From contig CAYIAX010000005.1 in the NCBI GenBank assembly GCA_964361595.1, positions 1-53,902 of the forward strand: DNA of 53,902 bases. The letters run 5' to 3'. Source of the DNA: an uncultured Candidatus Saccharibacteria bacterium. Its GTDB lineage: Bacteria > Patescibacteriota > Minisyncoccia > UBA6257 > 2-01-FULL-56-20. Positions 8,224-39,352 of the stretch are shown here, in pieces; position 1 is the first letter of the stretch; the number at the start of each line of letters is the position of its first letter. A model generated the notes under the pieces. The model did not search any database and was not told the DNA's origin. It was given only the letters and a program-made list of their open reading frames with translations. The position numbers and the translations under genes were made by a program.

Positions 8224-9681
8224 ATGCTTGATGAATTAAGACGGGAACGTTTACGCAAACTTGAAGAGATCCGCAAAGCCAAGCTCGATCCCTACCCGGC
8301 CCGCGTAAAGCGAACGCTTGCGGTTGGCGAGGCGCGCAAAAAATTCGCCGCGCTCGAAAAAGGCAAGAAAGCCGTAGGTTTGGCAGGGCGTGCGATTTCC
8401 ATCCGCGACCAGGGCGGAGTGATTTTTATGGATCTGCGGGATGAAAGCGGTTCGCTGCAAGTGGTTCTGAAAAAGGACACGGTCAAGAATTTCGATTTTC
8501 TTAAAGGAGTTTTGGACCGCGGTGATTTTGTTGCGGTCTTGGGACCATTATTCAAGACCAAATCCGGGCAGGAAAGCATCGAAGCCAAAAATTTGGAAAT
8601 AATCTCGAAGAGCATCCGGCCGTTGCCTTCCGAGTGGTACGGCATCGAAGAAACGGAGACGCGGTTGCGCAAACGGTATTTGGATTTGTTTTTAAATCCG
8701 GAAACACGAGAGCTCTTCGAACGCAAGGCAATTTTTTGGGAAACTGCCAGGAAATACATGAAGCAAAACGGTTTTACCGAAGTTGAACTGCCGGTTTTTG
8801 AAAGCGTACCCGGCGGCGCCGACGCGGAGCCCTTCAAAACCCACCACAACGCGCTGGATACCGATTTTTATCTCCGCATCTCGCTTGAACTGCCGCTTAA
8901 AAAACTTTTAGTCGGCGGTTTTGAAAAGGTGTTCGAGATCGGCAGGATTTTCAGGAACGAGGGCATTGACCGCGAGCATCTGCAGGATTACACGCAGTTG
9001 GAATTTTATTGGGCTTATGCCGATTACCGCGAGCTGATGGTTTTTGTCGAAAAATTCTACAAGGAAATCATCAAAGCAACGACCGGCGGGCTTACGACCA
9101 CTTGGCAGGGAGAGAAGATAAACTGGGGCAAAAAGTGGGAGGTTATTAAATATACAGATGCCTTTAAGAAAGCCAACAAGCTCGATCCGCTTGCGGCCAA
9201 AGAAAACGAACTCATAAAAATGGCTGAAGCATTGGGCTTGGAGCCGGAGCGCGGAATGGGCAAAGGCAGGTTAATTGATTTAATTTACAAAAAGACGGTG
9301 CGCCCGCACATTATCCAGCCGGCGTTTTTGATTGACCCGCCGGTTGAGCTTGTGCCCTTAACCAAGCGGTCGGACGAGAATCCAGCGGTAGGCGAGCGTA
9401 TGCAGCCTGTGGCCGGCGGCACGGAGCTGGGGACCGGATTTTCGGAATTAAATGATCCGATCGATCAGCGCAAGCGGTTCGAAGAGCAAATGAAACTGCG
9501 GGAAGCGGGGGATGCGGAAGCCCAGCGTTTGGACGAAGAATTTTTGGAAGCTTTGGAATACGGTATGCCGCCTGCGGCAGGCTTCGGATTTTCCGAGCGT
9601 TTGTTCGCCGTCTTAATGGACAAACCAGTTCGGGAAACGGTGATTTTCCCGTTGATGCGCCCCAGGAGTAATCTCGAATAA
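8224..9681 (+). CDS. lysS: Lysine--tRNA ligase (class II)
   Basis: GGADAEPFKTHHN, FRNEGID, FSELNDP, LEYGMPP. Confidence 0.97.
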   Translation: MLDELRRERLRKLEEIRKAKLDPYPARVKRTLAVGEARKKFAALEKGKKAVGLAGRAISIRDQGGVIFMDLRDESGSLQVVLKKDTVKNFDFLKGVLDRGDFVAVLGPLFKTKSGQESIEAKNLEIISKSIRPLPSEWYGIEETETRLRKRYLDLFLNPETRELFERKAIFWETARKYMKQNGFTEVELPVFESVPGGADAEPFKTHHNALDTDFYLRISLELPLKKLLVGGFEKVFEIGRIFRNEGIDREHLQDYTQLEFYWAYADYRELMVFVEKFYKEIIKATTGGLTTTWQGEKINWGKKWEVIKYTDAFKKANKLDPLAAKENELIKMAEALGLEPERGMGKGRLIDLIYKKTVRPHIIQPAFLIDPPVELVPLTKRSDENPAVGERMQPVAGGTELGTGFSELNDPIDQRKRFEEQMKLREAGDAEAQRLDEEFLEALEYGMPPAAGFGFSERLFAVLMDKPVRETVIFPLMRPRSNLE

Positions 9682-9738
9682 CGCGAATAAAAAATGAATA
9701 AATTGAAAATAAAATTATAGTTATTTGAGATTACTCCC

Positions 9739-10143
9739 ATGAAGAAAGTAATGGTCTTCGGCGTTTTCGACGGCATGCACGAAGGGCATCGAGCGTTTTT
9801 CCGCGAAGCTAAGATGCAGGGCGACTATTTGATCGCGGTCGTCTCGCCCGATGAGCACGTGGAACGCCTGAAGGGCCATCTGCCGGGGGTGAATCTAGCC
9901 AAGCGTTTTGCGGCCTTAGAGCGCGAAGACGGAGTCAATGAAGTTGTGATCGGCGATGAAGAGTTGGGTTCCTGGGCGGTTGTAAAAAAATACCGGCCGG
10001 AGATAATCGCCTTGGGCTACGATCAAACAATGCTTAAGGTTCATCTTGAATCCGCGCTACCGCAATTTGACTGGCACCCTATTGTCAAAATAATGAATTC
10101 ATTTGAACCAAATAGATATAAAAGTAGTTTGCTTAGTAACTAG
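9739..10143 (+). CDS. Cytidylyltransferase-family protein (RibL/FAD synthetase-like)
   Basis: FGVFDGMHEGH (HxGH) motif, IALGYDQ. Confidence 0.75.
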   Translation: MKKVMVFGVFDGMHEGHRAFFREAKMQGDYLIAVVSPDEHVERLKGHLPGVNLAKRFAALEREDGVNEVVIGDEELGSWAVVKKYRPEIIALGYDQTMLKVHLESALPQFDWHPIVKIMNSFEPNRYKSSLLSN

Positions 10144-10149
10144 ACCGAG

Positions 10150-10192
10150 CACTGTGCTGTGTAGCACAGTGCTATGCTATAGCATAGCACTG
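10150..10192. repeat. Tandem GTGCTA..TAGCAC palindromes between convergent genes (related copy at 29382-29424)
   Basis: CACTGTGCTGTGTAGCACAGTG and CAGTGCTATGCTATAGCATAGCACTG. Confidence 0.6.
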
Positions 10193-10231
10193 ACCATTAA
10201 ACCTAAGTACAAAAAAATATTTCCCGAGGAG

Positions 10232-13200
10232 TTATGCTGCGGATTCCAGCTTCTTCGCTTTTTCGGCGATGAACTTCACTTCGCCGTTGCGGCGGGAGAT
10301 ATGGCCTTCGACCACCACGACGTTATTTTCTTCCCAAACTGGCTGGGTCTTGGCGAGGACGCTGTTAAAGACCACTACTTCCATCGGTTCGGGCGAGAGG
10401 TCTTCAACGGTGGCAAAAAGCATTGCCTGGCCGGTTTTCGTCGTAATTTTCTGCACGCGGGAAATTGAGCCGCAGATGCGGAGCGTTGAAGCTTCGCTTT
10501 TTGTATTCCTCGCCTCGGCAATCGGTTTAGCTTGATAGCGCTTGATGTTATCTGAATGGTTATTCAGGGGATGATCCGAAAGATAAAGTCCCAGCAGTTC
10601 TTTTTCCCAAACTAATTTCTCCTGCGAGGAAGCGGGAGGTGCGGGTTTCAAAGTCAAGACTGGCTGGGTAGCTTCCGCGCCGAAAAGCGAGGCGTGATTA
10701 TTTGGCACAGCGGCTTTCTTTAGCTGGACGTTGAATTTAAGCATTTCTTCCAGGTTCGTGAGGAGCTGATTACGTTCGGCGCCCAATGAATCAAGCGCGC
10801 CGCATTTAACTAAGCTTTCCAATGATTTTTTATTTAGGTCTTTGTGCTGGACGCGGACAAGCAGGTCGTTTATATCGCGGAAAGGACCGCGCAGGGAACG
10901 TTCCTCGATTATATTTTTTGTGATTTCTGCGCCTACATTCTTGATCGCTAACAAACCAAACCTGATCTTAGGGCCCGTCGGCACGAAGTTAATCGAGCTT
11001 TCATTTATATCGGGCGGCAAAACCTCGATTTCCGCCTGCTTGGCTTCGTTGACGAGAAAGGCGATGCGGTCGATATCGGAAAGTTCGGCGTTAAGCAAGC
11101 TCGCCATAAATTCTTCCGTGTAGTGCGCCTTTAGATACGCAGTGCGGTAGCCGATCATAGCGTAGGCGGCGGCATGGCTTTTGTTGAATCCGTAGCGGGC
11201 AAACGGCGGGAAGAGTTCCCAGATCGCCTCCGCGGTTTTCTTCGGGATGTCATTCTTGATCATGCCGTTCGTGAGTTTTTCTTTCTGTTCGTCAAGGAGA
11301 GATTTGATTTTCTTGCCGATCGCCTTGCGCAAGGTGTCGGCCTCGGGGAGGGTATAGCCCGCGAGATCGCGGGCGATCTGCATCATTTGTTCCTGGTAGA
11401 CGCCGATGCCGTAGGTATTCTTTAAGATCGGTTCGAGCCGCGGATGAAGATAGGCGATTTTCTCCTGTCCATGCTTGCGCTTGATAAAAGAAGGGATAAG
11501 TTCCATCGGCCCGGGCCGGTATAAGGAGACGAGTGCGATCAGATCTTCAAGTTCCGTCGGGCGAATTTCTTTCATATACCGGCGCATGCCAGATGACTCA
11601 AATTGGAATACGCCGGTCGTATTCCCCGCGCGTAAAAGCTCAAAAGTTTTCTCGTCGTTCAAGGGCAGTTCGGAAATTTTTATATCTTCGCCGCGAATTT
11701 CTTTGACCAGCCGAACGGTATCTTCGATGATCGTCAGGTTCTTGAGTCCCAGGAGATCGATCTTCAAGAGCCCCAAGTCTTCCACGCTATGCATTTCGAA
11801 TTGCGTGATGATGTTTTGTTTGTCCTGCGGGGCGTACTGTAAAGGCAGATATTCCGTCAAAGGCTCTTCGGTGAAAACCGTGCCGCAGGCGTGCACGGAA
11901 GCATGTCTCGCTACTCCTTCCAAATGCTTGGCGCTGTCAAGCAGGCGTTTCGCGTCGGCATTTTTTTCGTAAAGATCCTGGAGCTCCGGTACGCGCTTTA
12001 AGGAATCGCCGATTTTCAAATTGAAGGGGATAAGCTTGGCAATCTGGTCACAGAAACCATAGGCCAGTCCCATTGCCCGGCCGGCATCGCGCACGGCGGC
12101 GCGCGCAGCCATCGTTCCGAAAGTGATAATTTGGGCTACGTGGTCCTCGCCGTATTTTTCGCGGGCATAGGCCAGAACCTCGTCACGGCGGGTGTCCGCA
12201 AAATCAATGTCGATATCAGGCATTTGGATGCGTTCGGGATTCAAAAACCGCTCGAAGAGTAAGCCGTATGCCAAGGGGTTAATATCCGTAATGCCCAATA
12301 TATAGGAAACAATGCTGCCCGCAGCCGAACCGCGGCCAGGCCCCACGGCAATACCGTGATCTTTAGCCCAGTTCGTCAGGTCCTGCACGATTAAAAAGTA
12401 ATCGGCAAAGCCGGTTTTTGCGATCACATCCAATTCGTATTCCAGGCGGTTTTTAACGTCTTCGGTTTGGGCTTCGGGCGGAAATCTTTGCGGCAATCTT
12501 TCTTCAATAATTTTCCGCAAGTACATATCCGGCGTGAATCCCGGCGGTTTGGCGAAATGGGGGAGATGGGTTTTACCCAGGGCAAGCGTAACGTTGCAGC
12601 GCTCGGCAATTTTTACGGTATTCTCGACCGCGTGGGGTATATCCTTGAACTTTTCCGCCATTTGTTCGGGTGAAGTCATGGAAAAATCGTCGGACTTAAG
12701 CGTGAGCCTGTCGTCATCCGAAAGCCGGCTGCCGGTCTGCACGGCCAGAAGAATATCGTGGTACTCCGAATCCTCCGGCATTACATAGTGGATATCCTGC
12801 GTGGCGACGAGCGGCAAGCCGGTAGCTTTCGCTAATTCGATGATAGCTTGTTTCAGTTCTTCGGCTTTGGGCAGGTTCGGATGATCACCGATTTCAAGAT
12901 AAAAATTATCCGGCCCCAAAATTTCCGAATATTCCGCCGCGATCTTTTTCGCTTCTTCAAACCGGCCGTTTAAAAGCGCCTGGTTCACTTCGCCGCCCAT
13001 GCAGGCGGAGAGTCCGATCAAACCTTCGCGGTACCCGCGCAAAATTTCCTTGTCGATGCGTGGCTTATAATAGAAGCCTTCAAGATGGGCCTTGGTAACA
13101 AGCTTGATCAGATTTTTCCAGCCAGTTTCGTTCCGGGCGAGAAGAACGAGATGGTAATAGCGCTCACTGCCTTCTTTACTGAAGCGATCGCGCGGGGCCA

Positions 13201-33995: not shown

Positions 33996-36554
33996 ATGCT
34001 TGATTCGCTTAAAAAATTTTTCAGTTCGCGTTCTTTAAGCGGATTTTTTGAGACCGTTAAAACCATAAACGCGCTCGAGCCGGAAATCCAGAAACTTTCT
34101 AATGAGGAATTGAAGCAAGCTGGTTTGGATTTAAAAAAATCCGTAGAAGGCGGGGAGCCGACTGAAGACGAACGGGCAAAAGCATTCGCGCTTGTGCGCG
34201 AAGCCGCGCGGCGCACCTTAAACCAGCGCCCTTATGACGTCCAGCTTGTGGGCGGGCTTGTGCTTGACAAGGGCGCCGTGGCGGAAATGGCCACGGGCGA
34301 AGGAAAAACTTTGGCCGCGGTCGCGCCCGCATACTGGAACGCGCTTAGAGGCAAAGGAGCGCATATCGTAACCGTGAACGAATACCTGGCCCGCCGCGAT
34401 GCGGTTTGGATGGGACAGATCTACCGCAGGCTGGGGCTCTCGGTTGCTTGTCTCGTGCCCAACGCAGCCTTCTTATACGACTCTGAATGGAAGATACCGG
34501 AGGAAGGCGAGAAGTTGATTGACCGCGAGCGGGACGAAACAGGCAGCTTCTTGGTCCAGCAGGAATTTTTGCGCCCGATCTCCAGGCGTGAAGCCTATTT
34601 GGCCGATATCACCTATGGCACGAACCACGAATTCGGTTTTGACTATTTGCGCGATAACCTGGCCTACCACATGGCCGACCAGGTCCAGCGCGAGCATTAT
34701 TTTGCAATTATTGACGAGGTAGATTCGATTTTAATTGATGAAGCGCGCACGCCCTTGATTATCGCCGCGCCCGATACGGAATCGAGCGAATATTATAAAG
34801 TGTTTGCCCGCGTGGCGGAAATGCTCACGCCCGAAGAGGATTACACCGTTGACGAGAAGCACCGTTCGGCGAGCATTACCGAGAGCGGTATCGAAAAAAC
34901 GGAAAAATCATTGGGGCTTGCGAATCTCTACGGGCCGGAAAATCTGCGCCTTGTGCATTATCTTGAAGAAAGCTTGCGGGCCAAAGCGCTTTATCATCGC
35001 GACCGCGATTACGTGGTGAAGGGCGGCGAAGTTTTGATCGTGGACGAGTTCACGGGCCGCTTACTTCACGGCCGCCGCTATCAGGGCGGTCTCCATCAGG
35101 CGATTGAAGCCAAAGAGAGCGTCCAGGTAAAACAGGAATCACGAACTTACGGCAAGATTTCCCTCCAAAATTATTTCCGGCTCTACAAAAAGATTTCCGG
35201 CATGACCGGCACGGCGCAAACTTCCGCGGAGGAATTCCATAAGGTTTACAACCTGGAGGTATTTTCGATCCCGACGAATAAGCCGATGATCCGCGAAGAC
35301 AAGAATGATTTGATCTATAAAAATTCGCAGGCGAAGTGGCGCGCCTTGATCGAAGATATTCGTGTGCGCCATAAGCAGAGCCAGCCGATCCTGATCGGTA
35401 CGGCTTCAATCGAAAAGAATGAATTGGTTTCCGCGCACTTGTCGCGCGAGCACATTCCGCACGAAGTTTTAAATGCTAAGAACAACGAACGCGAAGGCGC
35501 GATCATCGCCCAGGCCGGCAAACCGGGCGCGGTAACTGTGGCGACGAATATGGCCGGCCGCGGCGTGGACATTATTCTCGGAGGCAACCCTCCAAGCGCA
35601 GACTTAGCGCAGACTGTACGCGGACTTGGCGGACTCCACGTGGTTGGCACCGAACGGCACGAAGCCCGCCGGATCGACAACCAGCTGCGCGGCCGTTCCG
35701 GCCGTCAAGGCGATCAGGGCAGTTCGCAATTCTATCTTTCGCTTGAAGACGATCTCTTGCGCATCTTTGGCGGCGACCGCATTAAGTCGCTCATGGATCG
35801 CTTCGATCTGCCTGAAGACGAACCGATCCAGCTCGGCTTTGTCTCCAGCGCGGTGGCGCAGGCGCAGGCGCGCGTCGAGGGCGCGAATTTCGACTTGCGG
35901 AAACATTTGCTCGAATACGATGACGTTTTGAATAAACAGCGCACGGCGGTATATAAGCGGCGGCAGGAATTTTTGACGAGCCTGAACCAGGAAACTTTGG
36001 CTGACAGCATTTACCAAGCTGCCCATGATTTTGTTGGTAGATTCAGGGAACAGCCGGCCATGGAACCGGAAACGGATCTGGACGCCGAATTCAAAAAGCT
36101 GCTCCAGGAAACCGGCATTGCGAACGAGAAGCATCCGGTTCCGGAAAATTTAGACGAGGAAAGCATTAAGAGTTTGCTTTTGAAGCGGAGTCTCGAAGCT
36201 AGTCTTGATCCACTTACGATCCAAAGGATTTTGGGCGTGCTCGATATGCTTTGGATGACGCACTTGGAAAACCTCGAGGCGCTTTCCGAATCCGTCGGCC
36301 TTCGCGCCTATGGGCAAAAGGATCCGCTTGTCGAATATCGCGAAGAAGCGCGAAAATTATTCAAAGACTTTTGGGCTAATTTCAACGCTTGGCTCACGAT
36401 GAATATATTTAAACTAGCAAAGAGCAAAGAGCAAATGGCAAATAGTAAAAAGGCGGGCTTGCCCGCCGGAGGGCAGAGCGGCGCGAAGGTAGGTCGCAAC
36501 GACCCCTGCCCATGCGGTTCAGGGAAGAAATATAAGAGATGTCATGGGGCGTGA
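33996..36554 (+). CDS. secA: Preprotein translocase ATPase SecA
   Basis: [40 protein letters not shown]-terminal [19 protein letters not shown]. Confidence 0.98.
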
Positions 36555-36565
36555 GGAATAAAAAT

Positions 36566-37012
36566 ATGGAAACGAAACAGGTAAAAATTAGAAATGCGGA
36601 AACTAATGACATTGAAGCAATTCGAGGATTGGTTGATTATCTTATGCAAGTTGAAGAGGTAGAGAATGTTGAGGGCAACGTTGAAAAAATAATGAAAGAT
36701 AGGATTCTGCCATCGATAGATTCTGATACAGCGATAACTTTTGTAGCAGAGGTTGGTGGTAAAGTTGTAGGAGTATTACTGGTAGAGATAAAGCGAGGTT
36801 TGGTTCTGTCACTGGCGTACATAGCAGTTTATCCAGAAAATCAGAAACTAGGAGTTGGTAAAAAATTGCTGGAAAAAGCCGAAGAATACGCCAAGAGTAA
36901 AAATATCCATATTTTGGAGGGACTGATTCACAAAGACAATCAAAAATCGCGAGAATTTCACGAAAAAAATGGATTTGAACTGTTTGGCTACAATTTGCGG
37001 AAAGAAATTTAG
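36566..37012 (+). CDS. GNAT-family N-acetyltransferase (cassette 1)
   Basis: IRNAE..DIEAI, IAV.PENQKLGVGKKLL, N..SREFHEKNGF. Confidence 0.88.
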   Translation: METKQVKIRNAETNDIEAIRGLVDYLMQVEEVENVEGNVEKIMKDRILPSIDSDTAITFVAEVGGKVVGVLLVEIKRGLVLSLAYIAVYPENQKLGVGKKLLEKAEEYAKSKNIHILEGLIHKDNQKSREFHEKNGFELFGYNLRKEI

Positions 37013-37125
37013 CCGCATGACATTTTCTATATTCAGACGAATCCGACAGTGTCATAAATCGGAAAACGGCTTAAAATATAGAAAATCCGTGCGGTTGGTT
37101 ATTAAAACAGTAGAAGTGTCACGGG
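37013..37125. repeat. 113-bp hairpin-plus-core site, copy 1
   Basis: CCGCATGACATTTTCTATATT pairs with AATATAGAAAATCCGTGCGG; homologous to 39153-39265. Confidence 0.85.
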
Positions 37126-37207
37126 TCATGAGGATAAGAAAAACCCGAGGGACATAGTAGCTTCCGTCAGTCGGCTACATCACCCTCGGGGGAGTAACAG
37201 AGATGTT

Positions 37208-37630
37208 ATGGGAGAAAAAAAGCAAAAACTAACTGGAATAACATTTATTCTCGTGCGTCCGAATAGTGAGATGCTACTTCAGTTACGAGACGAAAAATCA
37301 AGATATTATCCTAATACGTGGTGTTTCCCCGGAGAGAGTGCCGAGGGGAACGAAGAGCCCATACAGATGGTTATTCGAGGAGTGCAGGAGGAATACAATG
37401 TTCGGGTATCAAAAAATATATGTCAATTTCTGACCGTAAATCATTTGCCACATATTAACCAAGAAATCGCTGTATTTATATGCAAAATCGATGATAATCA
37501 AACTCCAGTTATGAGAGAAGGGAAGAAAATGCGATGGATGGGTATAAATGAGATTAAGAAACTGGAGCTCGGATTTGAGCAGAATAAAATTCTACCATTC
37601 ATCGAAGAGTTCCTGCGTGGTAGTCAATAA
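37208..37630 (+). CDS. NUDIX-family hydrolase (cassette 2)
   Basis: LLQLRD, WCFPGESAEGNEEP..IRGVQEEY (degenerate Nudix box). Confidence 0.8.
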   Translation: MGEKKQKLTGITFILVRPNSEMLLQLRDEKSRYYPNTWCFPGESAEGNEEPIQMVIRGVQEEYNVRVSKNICQFLTVNHLPHINQEIAVFICKIDDNQTPVMREGKKMRWMGINEIKKLELGFEQNKILPFIEEFLRGSQ

Positions 37631-37663
37631 GCAACAAAGATGTCATGGGGCGTAGGGTAAAAT

Positions 37664-38602
37664 ATGATATACAATCCTGAAAAACCATATAAAGAACAAA
37701 TTCTGGGATTAATTAAAAAAACTTGGAATACTCCTTATGTTTCTATTCATGATGGAGCATATTCGGTATTCAGAAGAAAATTCGATTACCCTGAAGTTGA
37801 TCATACAGACGGAATAGGAACAAAGGGAATATACCACTGGAAGAAGCGCAGCTTCAAAGGCGCTGTTTTGGACGCTTTGGCAATGAATTTGAACGATCTG
37901 GCAATGGCAAGAGCCGTTCCATATAAGCTTCAGTGCCATATTATTGTGCCCGAAGATGACCAGAGAGCGATTATGGAGATCATAAAGAGTTTGGTTACGG
38001 AGTGCATGAAACTAAAAATCGCTATTACCGGAGGAGAGACATCGGTTCAAAACAATATGGACGGTCTTGATATCAGTTTGACGGTTAGCGGATTTGTGCG
38101 AAGAGAGAAGCGAAACAAATTTCAGGCGGGTGATATATTAGTTGGTTTCGCAAGTAATGGGTTGCATTCGAATGGGTTTACGATGGTACGAAATGCGTTT
38201 GCTAATAGATTCCGCAAAGAGCTTATAGAGCCAACAGTGATGTATTTGAAGTCAATTCAGGATATTCAGGAAAGGTATGACATTCATGGCATGATGCATA
38301 TAACCGGTGGGGCGTTTACAAGGTTGAAAGGGTTGCTCTCAAAAACTGATGCGGTTATCACGAATGATCATTCTTTGAAACCACAGGGCATATTTCGGGA
38401 ATTATATGCACATAGAATTACAGATCGCGACATGTACAAGACTTTCAACTGCGGAATAGGATTTATATTGGCAGTTTCCAAGAAAGACGCTCTGGGAATT
38501 GTTACCCAAATAAAAGGCGCAGACATAATTGGAGAAGTTACGCAGGGATCGGGAAAGGTCAGGATAGCGTCAATGTTCAGCGGAAAGAGAATAAAAATTT
38601 GA
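37664..38602 (+). CDS. PurM-like (AIR synthase family) protein, copy 2 (cassette 3)
   Basis: YPEVDHTDGIGTKG, DALAMNLNDLA, GGET, SNGLHSNG, HITGG, TFNCGIG. Confidence 0.85.
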   Translation: MIYNPEKPYKEQILGLIKKTWNTPYVSIHDGAYSVFRRKFDYPEVDHTDGIGTKGIYHWKKRSFKGAVLDALAMNLNDLAMARAVPYKLQCHIIVPEDDQRAIMEIIKSLVTECMKLKIAITGGETSVQNNMDGLDISLTVSGFVRREKRNKFQAGDILVGFASNGLHSNGFTMVRNAFANRFRKELIEPTVMYLKSIQDIQERYDIHGMMHITGGAFTRLKGLLSKTDAVITNDHSLKPQGIFRELYAHRITDRDMYKTFNCGIGFILAVSKKDALGIVTQIKGADIIGEVTQGSGKVRIASMFSGKRIKI

Positions 38603-38644
38603 ACCCCGTGGGTTAGCGAATAAGTAGCAAAGGTGTCATGGGCA

Positions 38645-39160
38645 ATGAGGAAAGAATATAACAAAGAGTCGTGGATAAATCCAAAAGTTGAAGTCCGAAA
38701 TTCAGAGTTCGGTGGTAAGGGTTTATTCGCTAAAGAAACGATAGAAAAGGATGAGATTGTGATAGTATGGGGAGGAACATTAATGACGGAAGAAACGATA
38801 AAGAGGGGTAATTACAGAAAAGGTACGAGCGTCGAGATAGGCGAGGGTATGTATTTTGCTGGAAAGCCAAGCGAATCGCCAGGAACTGATGACTTCTTGA
38901 ATCATTCTTGCGATCCCAACTTATGGCTAAAGGATGAAGTTACGCTGATTATGAGAAGGGATATTGAAAAAGATGAGGAGTTGACTGCTGATTATGGAAC
39001 ATGGGTCTCACGACCAGAGTGGAAAATGGAATGCAGATGTGGATCGAGGTTATGTCGAAAAATGATCACAGGCAACGATTGGAAGTCAGCAGGGCTGCAA
39101 AAAGGATACGGAGACCACTTGTCGCCGTATCTAAAAGAACGAATCAAAAAATCCGCATGA
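38645..39160 (+). CDS. SET-domain methyltransferase with post-SET CxCxxxxC (cassette 4)
   Basis: GKGLFA, FLNHSCDPN, ELTADYG, CRCGSRLCR. Confidence 0.92.
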   Translation: MRKEYNKESWINPKVEVRNSEFGGKGLFAKETIEKDEIVIVWGGTLMTEETIKRGNYRKGTSVEIGEGMYFAGKPSESPGTDDFLNHSCDPNLWLKDEVTLIMRRDIEKDEELTADYGTWVSRPEWKMECRCGSRLCRKMITGNDWKSAGLQKGYGDHLSPYLKERIKKSA

Positions 39161-39265
39161 CATTTTCTATATTCAGGCAAATCGGATTGGTAATCGATAC
39201 GAAAAATGGCTTAAAATAAAGAAAGTCCGTGCGGTTGTTTATTAAAAAGGCAGCATTGTCATGGG
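39153..39265. repeat. 113-bp hairpin-plus-core site, copy 2
   Basis: Same length and ends as 37013-37125. Confidence 0.85.
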
Positions 39266-39352
39266 AAAAAGTTCTTATAAAAATAATCATTCTCACATTC
39301 TCAAGAATGTGAGAATGTTGTATGGAAACATTTCTACAGAATCAATAAATCT

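Follow-up and report, generated by a model that had tools for sequence, protein, structure and literature searches.

Elements that integrate at the 3′ ends of genes use tRNA, tmRNA or protein genes as targets, and their attP carries a copy of the target's end. CTX-type phages have a single-stranded genome in which two inverted dif-like sites fold together to imitate the site of the host. Acinetobacter plasmids carry dif modules, which are small gene modules that lack a recombinase, have short sites, some of them inverted, and shuffle between replicons. The locus considered here lies in a stretch of 53,902 nucleotides (hereafter, the window; contig CAYIAX010000005.1 of assembly GCA_964361595.1, from an uncultured Candidatus Saccharibacteria bacterium). 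In it, secA is followed by an array of small genes bounded by sites that resemble the end of secA: two 113-bp elements, A and B, each with an inverted repeat, and two short sites. Comparison across genomes argues that the 113-bp elements are real recombination-site relics or modules tied to secA. We consider it probable that the last ~25 bases of secA are the attachment site for tyrosine integrases of Parcubacteria temperate phages.

The genome searched was the window's own assembly (778,217 bases in 23 contigs; estimated completeness 99.9%). Two features anchor the array, as follows.

33996..36554, + strand: secA, from its open reading frame (ORF) and translation; the last codons carry the putative attachment core.
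36530..36560, + strand: predicted secA-tail attachment site, from the sequence, a dyad model based on palindromic relatives, and boundary mapping.

Pfam places SecA domains across the secA product, with the SEC-C motif at residues 834–851. In the tail site, the left arm extends to 36544 and ends in TGTCA, the 7-base overlap spans 36545–36551, and the right arm, made up of the stop codon TGA and a ribosome-binding-like GAGGA, is weak. The core, TGTCATGGG, corresponds to the Cys-His-Gly codons of the SecA zinc-finger tail. Searching both strands of the whole genome yields four copies, all on the + strand (36540, 37641, 38634 and 39257), all within 2.7 kb downstream of secA and each marking a gene boundary; variants of the core are found at 37117 and 37204. 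The looser pattern RTGTCAYGGG, with one mismatch allowed, has 10 matches in the window against 5.0 expected, and 3 of 100 shuffles have as many. That is, the core signal is the clustering, not the number of matches. Every downstream copy of the core reads [R/K]-C-H-G-x-stop in the same register as secA; thus, the array can be read as a series of displaced or mimicked SecA tails. The likeness extends beyond the core. Both short sites, like the right 45 bases of each 113-bp element, are divergent versions of the final 45 bases of secA, and the distance between the two Cys-coding parts is constant across the secA tail, the 113-bp elements and the short sites.

Mimics of the SecA tail are also found beside a family of phage integrases. 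A search of all fetched loci revealed a non-Xer integrase fragment, 29–31% identical to Xer, at the edge of one array (locus L064). Some 330 bases after it come an inverted arm, a tail mimic, a hairpin mini-unit, a gene unit, a 113-bp element and more units. This inverted arm agrees with the left arm of the window's elements at 16 of 23 bases, a match that none of 2000 random windows reaches. The closest relative of the L064 integrase in 400 genomes of the order (genome G214, 65% identity) has the same layout, the inverted arm and tail mimic lying 330–440 bases downstream of the integrase in the two loci. In G214, the genes preceding the integrase encode a large polyvalent protein and an amidase; beyond the integrase lie a NUDIX unit and then host genes. 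The IMG/VR database holds seven contigs with integrases that are 65–98% identical. Five of these loci have more than 400 bases downstream of the integrase, and four of the five carry a tail mimic. The mimics beside the integrase read KK[YFW]K[RK]C[HC]G-x-stop. Two of the integrase-bearing records are complete genomes with terminal repeats. The records behind loci L227 and L231 open with a genuine secA end opposite the integrase, and L227 also has the integrase-side repeat; this is the layout expected of prophages inserted in the secA tail. In addition, the related phage sites show inverted recombinase-type half-sites, as expected for sites acting on double-stranded DNA.

More distant members of the integrase family (37–39% identity) are present in genomes G294, G310 and G285. 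There, a different conserved motif, including TGTCATAG, is found within 15 bases after the integrase gene, and it may represent another target specificity.

The two 113-bp elements of the window are as follows.

37013..37125, + strand: 113-bp element A, from sequence, folding, genome search and alignment of copies.
39153..39265, + strand: 113-bp element B, the final site of the array, from sequence, folding and genome search.

Element A consists of an inverted arm (37013–37033), a hypervariable centre (37034–37062), a near-invariant centre (37063–37088) and, at its right end, a pseudo-SecA tail (37089–37116) followed by the core (37117–37125). A preliminary description of the locus had reported two 113-bp sites with the same ends and differing centres, and its coordinates and letters are correct. 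They are also the sole copies in the genome, as a whole-genome search with the 113 bases returns only A and B, B being 82% identical to A. The window contains the 21-mer CCGCATGACATTTTCTATATT at exactly two positions, 37013 and 39153, both on the + strand; in 100 shuffled windows none is expected, even with up to three mismatches. Two further statements of the same description are borne out: the left arm is an inverted near-copy of the last secA bases, 36530–36547, and the sites before 37649 and 38642 resemble each other. The concern that the element might be a genome-wide miniature inverted-repeat transposable element is settled by its two genomic copies, both in the secA array. It is tied to secA, and in many other genomes it forms unit boundaries in arrays. 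Those genomes have at most three copies each.

The distribution of the element is wide. A BLAST search of 400 other genomes of the order (E ≤ 1e-6) found it in 12 genomes from 10 families, including the window's own. These are full or large matches, 72–84% identical to site A, while secA DNA compared between the same kinds of genomes is 64–72% identical. A pattern scan of species-representative genomes gave 28 loci, all in Parcubacteria-type metagenome-assembled genomes (MAGs), and a scan of metagenome contigs gave at least 80 loci. From the genome and metagenome loci, 83 distinct copies among the matches listed were pooled; relatives in this set are not independent, many loci are short contigs, and the evidence is comparative throughout. 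Upstream sequence of at least 700 bases is available for 57 of the 83. In 26 of the 83 copies, a secA C-terminal region of at least 60 residues precedes the element on the same strand at a distance of 215–1176 bases (searched to 1.5 kb), and a further 7 have a short secA-tail match only. No copy among the 83 has secA on the opposite strand. Further tail copies follow secA within 1.5 kb in about 10 of 29 family relatives, the 113-bp element being present in one only; it follows from this survey that arrays are common and that the 113-bp form is one of several site classes. The suspicion that there is more than one class was thus well founded, as at least five can be counted: secA-like tails, 45-base short sites, 113-bp elements, a small adjacent inverted repeat, and 60–70-bp hairpin mini-units. 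Most array sites lack any inverted arm.

Three loci show other arrangements of the tail. One genome that already has a post-secA array carries a second array (L082, G401:C12:20000-30722, 9681–10723), which follows the gene for ribosomal protein L9 and consists of a pseudo-tail, a GNAT gene, a 113-bp element and a SET gene; translocation of an array, or a join made in assembly, may account for it. At L040:2244-3182, an ORF for an NAD-dependent epimerase ends in a SEC-C motif, that is, a copy of the SecA tail fused in frame. This fusion heads an array, and no secA is found within 15 kb. A 65-residue ORF with the same SEC-C motif is found at L078:9031-9225.

The conservation of the 113-bp element is that of a mosaic. 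In the 83 copies, about 19 columns are invariant and 37 nearly invariant, and the adjacent 30 bases vary freely. High-identity stretches between copies span either positions 2–82 or positions 50–114, a pattern indicating that left and right modules reassort around the near-invariant centre. The ~30-base variable centre is swapped even between units that are otherwise 86–95% identical.

Several observations on single copies may be recorded here. About 10 of the 83 copies have a G+C-rich hairpin of some 33 bases added at one fixed place in the conserved centre (L034:11004-11150 and L034:12585-12731, and copies in L047, L064, L070, L094, L124, L130 and L155); it resembles the mini-unit hairpin in sequence. 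At many loci (for example, L051, L063, L065 and L066), units with genes on the opposite strand share a motif with a −35-like hexamer on the gene strand, a few bases left of the element. Such units thus seem to have an outward promoter of their own, like the toxin-antitoxin cassettes of integrons. The proposal that the element encodes a small peptide was dropped, as one copy stops after 6 codons.

The units of the arrays are small, with one gene and one site, mostly co-oriented, and common to different hosts. Among 131 ORFs of about 15 arrays, the cargo includes acetyltransferases, NUDIX hydrolases, methyltransferases, HicAB, ParE, Phd, nucleotidyltransferases, glyoxalase, a phosphotransferase, SET proteins and many small unknowns. 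The only recombination-type genes in the 131 ORFs are two insertion-sequence transposases. The core marks where homology between arrays begins and ends. One unit is 95% identical in two unrelated MAGs, following secA in one and a different site in the other, and the homology starts at the core; for a second pair of units, the core bounds the homology on both sides. The GNAT unit of the window and a metagenome copy share 86–90% DNA identity from core through gene and 113-bp element to the next core, and the sequences are unrelated beyond. The stretch is listed in four DNA runs of one study and in no RNA run; contigs assembled from the DNA runs confirm the window's array, and one run's contig links a different 113-bp-like element directly to the SET unit at 38629. 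Since whole units, site included, are shared between distant hosts, some mobility is favoured.

The junctions keep the secA reading frame. Setting aside 27 of the 83 elements, which have no clean core by the pattern used, 42 of 56 right-end junctions read C-H-G-x-stop, against about 4% by our estimate for chance. Palindromic sites, in which two 9-base inverted arms surround 7 bases, are informative about the core itself. Eight unique sites of the form TGTCA-N7-TGACA have four complementary flanking bases on each side, GAGA/TCTC in seven and GCGT/ACGC in one; that is, the exceptional site is compensated on both sides. These sites look like the core of a tyrosine-recombinase site, with exchange predicted in the 7 bases after TGTCA.

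On the reading that we favour, in which phage integrases use the end of secA, an incoming element would bring a copy of the SecA tail, and strand exchange would occur in the few bases after TGTCA. The element would supply GGN-NNN-stop, which would preserve the zinc-finger end of SecA, and would displace the previous tail downstream. Repeated integration, followed by the loss of most of each element or by the spread of small integrase-less units, would give a row of single genes, each bounded by a copy of the tail. The 113-bp elements would be the most elaborate of the boundary sites, probably an expanded form of the integrase-side arm of the phage site, placed at the ends of small units. The inverted repeat is most simply viewed as an extra recombinase half-site that would act on double-stranded DNA. 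We infer that this integrase family made the window's array and that the 113-bp element may still be a working site. As to the units, there are two possibilities: they may still be mobilised in trans, or they may be remnants of decayed prophages.

A different account of the inverted repeat is capture as in integrons, in which the 113-bp elements would fold as attC-like hairpins of single-stranded DNA, one strand being exchanged with the secA site. We consider this unlikely. The arrays are integron-like in having mostly co-oriented single genes and toxin-antitoxin pairs, and site A does fold well: on the + strand, the minimum-energy DNA fold is the hairpin given in the preliminary description (−18.3 kcal/mol, z −4.28, equalled by 0 of 200 shuffles). 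The same hairpin was described for site B, but the minimum-energy fold there is another, unremarkable one, with pairing between the left end and the right-end core (−13.3 kcal/mol, z −1.71, equalled by 9 of 200 shuffles). The − strands fold less well (z −3.34 for A and −0.76 for B). In 70 aligned copies without large insertions, with DNA parameters used for the energies, the + strand is the more stable in 48 copies and one stem mismatch is kept in 56. In the copies with the extra G+C-rich hairpin, this hairpin lies inside the 3′ stem arm and the flanking arms are retained. These points speak for a fold. The alignment itself speaks against one. The description had looked to covariation among homologues for support of recombination on folded single strands, and none is found, as 75.8% of cells are paired in the described hairpin against 75.4% in shuffles. 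In the 19-pair main stem, one-sided variation affects 11 pairs, 3 deviate by unpaired cells only, 3 are changed on both sides, in one sequence each, and the other 2 are invariant. Pairs at the stem foot are broken in 25 and 45 of the 70 copies, and the described foot pairing is present in 9 of the 70 minimum-energy folds. RNAalifold returns no consensus pairs, and the alternative structure pairing the left end with the right-end core does no better in the 70 copies and is without useful covariation. The mean folding z is −1.3 on each strand, with z < −2 in only 26% of copies. Complementarity in the variable centre is not in excess: the longest stems average 4.20 pairs within copies and 4.15 between them, and as much complementarity as observed arises in 580 of 2000 permutations. 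A 5-pair inner helix seemed at first to give a signal, which was discarded when it vanished in an alignment-free test. To summarize, site A stands out only as the copy that folds best; the inverted repeat does exist and is conserved, none of these results shows it to work as a hairpin, and the attC-like single-strand fold is unproven. Single-strand capture is also disfavoured by the majority of array sites, with no inverted arm to fold, and by the lack of an integron integrase, as is seen next. It is very improbable that the element works in the secA transcript as an RNA signal, for example for processing, stabilisation or attenuation between genes. The elements lie between genes, always sense to secA, and several one-sided stem changes are G–T pairs on the + strand. 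Yet Rfam 15 gives no match over 36.5–39.3 kb up to E = 1 (over 33–42 kb, there are only weak matches at 33.4–34.1 kb, far under the gathering scores), the lack of a consensus structure and of covariation counts here as well, and an RNA signal would leave the tail mimicry and the frame-keeping junctions unexplained.

The recombinases of the host bear on two further explanations. The window's genome has one tyrosine recombinase, an Xer-like protein encoded on contigs other than that of the array. (The gene adjoins rpsO and is split at an assembly break between the end of contig C10 and the start of C13, loci L004 and L003; the contig ends overlap by about 18 codons, so the two contigs are probably adjacent.) This protein and its relatives score above the cut-off of an XerA-type model (251 bits against 220) and below that of the integron-integrase model (129–134 bits against 265). 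No recombinase gene is found in the window between 24.9 and 48.9 kb. It could be that the single Xer-type recombinase of the host moves the units in trans, as at dif or plasmid dif modules, and we regard this as decidedly unlikely. In its favour, an Xer-like gene is the sole tyrosine recombinase in the window's genome and in 4 of 5 array-bearing genomes tested, no member of the serine recombinase or Y1 transposase families is found in the window's genome, and the site has the dyad form (9+7+9) used by such enzymes. Against it, one of the five array-bearing genomes has no Xer match, and a dedicated integrase family adjoins the tail-mimic sites. The palindromic site is at chance level elsewhere in the window's genome (14 near matches against ~23 expected), and secA is unlike a terminus, with more than 10 kb of co-directional genes to either side; a role for secA as the replication terminus (dif) was dropped on this gene orientation alone. 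The other explanation treats the 113-bp elements as inert scars: remnants of former integrations, now decaying and without a present role, that are conserved only through recent transfer. The absence of the phage-type integrase from the window's genome, the many degenerate sites, and the short sites that look like truncated versions would all suit inert scars, which we rate as improbable, on a par with single-strand capture. Scars are not expected to hold invariant columns beside 30 bases that vary freely, to be more alike across families than secA DNA is, or to have left and right modules that reassort around an invariant centre.

The use of the secA tail by phage integrases, which remains our preferred reading, has several points against it. 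The phage integrase family is not found in the window's genome, the sole match being the Xer-type protein at 25–28% identity; thus, the window's array is at present an orphan. The ~15 arrays contain no integrase except at the edges of L064 and G214. One of the five viral loci with downstream sequence has no tail mimic. The arms of G214 and L227 agree with the window's left arm at 13 of 23 bases, a level that 7% of random windows reach. The likeness of the phage sites to the 113-bp element is limited to the inverted arm and the tail, and the pattern of the element has no match in IMG/VR. The contigs of the four DNA runs show no excision joint. The support is comparative, recombination being deduced from it, and there is no account of the replacement of the 30-base centre in otherwise near-identical units.

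A broader proposal can be made, tentatively, and we hold it rather doubtful: Parcubacteria might maintain an integron-like platform for gene exchange on the last codons of secA, in which single-gene units, each with a conserved attachment module of its own (in its full form, the 113-bp element), would be taken up, stacked and exchanged between species by phage integrases acting in trans and expressed from the secA transcript, with the ATG of the core as start codon. If so, these tiny streamlined genomes would have a dedicated hot spot for accessory genes.

The remaining features of the array (36566–39319) are as follows.

36566..37012, + strand: unit 1 gene, GNAT acetyltransferase (Pfam PF00583).
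37126..37212, + strand: gene-less 82-bp unit with a G+C-rich hairpin, from sequence and analogous mini-units in other arrays.
37208..37630, + strand: NUDIX hydrolase gene; its start codon is the ATG within the core.
37610..37649, + strand: short site 1, pseudo-SecA tail R-C-H-G-A-stop, without inverted arm.
37664..38602, + strand: AIR-synthase-related (PurM-like) gene (Pfam PF02769 and PF00586).
38604..38642, + strand: short site 2, pseudo-SecA tail R-C-H-G-Q-stop.
38645..39160, + strand: SET-domain gene (Pfam PF00856); its stop codon is inside the left arm of element B.
39288..39319, no strand assigned: 32-base palindrome just past the array, from contig depth in the source metagenome.

Three of the proteins have relatives in comparable positions. 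The GNAT protein has 87% amino acid identity to the product of an ORF immediately upstream of another 113-bp element (L160) and 68% to that of an ORF downstream of secA in a family relative. The NUDIX protein has 57% identity to the product of an ORF in the L180 array, and the SET protein 42% to that of a SET ORF placed after a 113-bp element (L082/L056). The 82-bp unit closes with a degenerate core, TGTTATGGG, at 37204–37212. Its segment 37126–37203 contains a nested G+C-rich hairpin followed by a T run on the − strand, a terminator-like arrangement, and the unit is comparable to the 60–70-bp hairpin mini-units between two cores in L055, L060, L064, L074 and L075. The 32-base palindrome, in the region 39278–39319, is highly abundant in the source metagenome, with a summed contig depth of 661 against ~7 alongside and many different flanks in all four runs. 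A terminator-like repeat spread through the community, or the original terminator of secA, may explain it, and it is probably not part of the attachment site. Similar hairpins are found 3′ of the 113-bp element in L057, L059 and L065.

Little is known about gene gain in bacteria of the candidate phyla radiation or about their temperate phages. Full-text searches of open-access papers and bioRxiv found no account of integration at secA or of cassette arrays in this group of bacteria, and 'secA' does not occur in the preprint 10.1101/2024.03.08.584096. If phage integrases do use the secA tail, the zinc-finger site would mark integration events and hot spots of accessory genes in thousands of uncultured genomes and would tie a phage family to its hosts. 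The integrase and its site would also be a candidate genetic tool for organisms that have none.

How does the locus compare with the described systems? It shares the logic of the phages and islands that integrate at 3′ ends, in which the integrase adjoins a repeat of the target's 3′ end, so the target gene stays intact. There too, prophages are flanked by direct repeats of the target's end, and several such repeats remain after tandem occupancy. It differs in that the target is the zinc-finger tail of SecA, the hosts are Parcubacteria, and most genomes hold rows of one-gene units with elaborate, conserved boundaries and no integrase. The dif modules share the small gene units that lack their own recombinase and are bounded by short sites; unlike those plasmid Xer sites, the sites here copy the end of a chromosomal gene and are linked to a dedicated integrase family. 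As in CTX-type phages, the hairpin has one arm complementary to the host site and a second arm that diverges exactly at the core, which would leave a bubble there. Unlike in those phages, the integrase is of the phage type rather than the host XerCD, the fold is weak in most copies, and single-stranded intermediates are not in evidence.

The likeness to integrons and to integrase-less attC arrays is one of architecture. In both, small, mostly co-oriented genes are each followed by an imperfect inverted-repeat site of 40–150 bp. The cargo is also alike (acetyltransferases, NUDIX hydrolases, methyltransferases and toxin-antitoxin pairs), and units are shared across arrays and hosts. Unlike integrons, the arrays have no integron integrase, the anchor lies within coding sequence, most sites are unpartnered, and it is the sequence that is conserved, the pairing showing no structural covariation. 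Unlike attC, the 113-bp element has ends that are inverted and direct copies of the SecA-tail core. If the phage-integrase reading holds, the locus would also show how an integron-like array can form in the absence of an integron integrase. Integration into the 3′ end of a gene with restoration of that gene is a known class of mechanism; what appears to be new is the use of secA as target, the group of hosts, the associated integrase family, and a conserved 113-bp module within an integron-like row of single genes.

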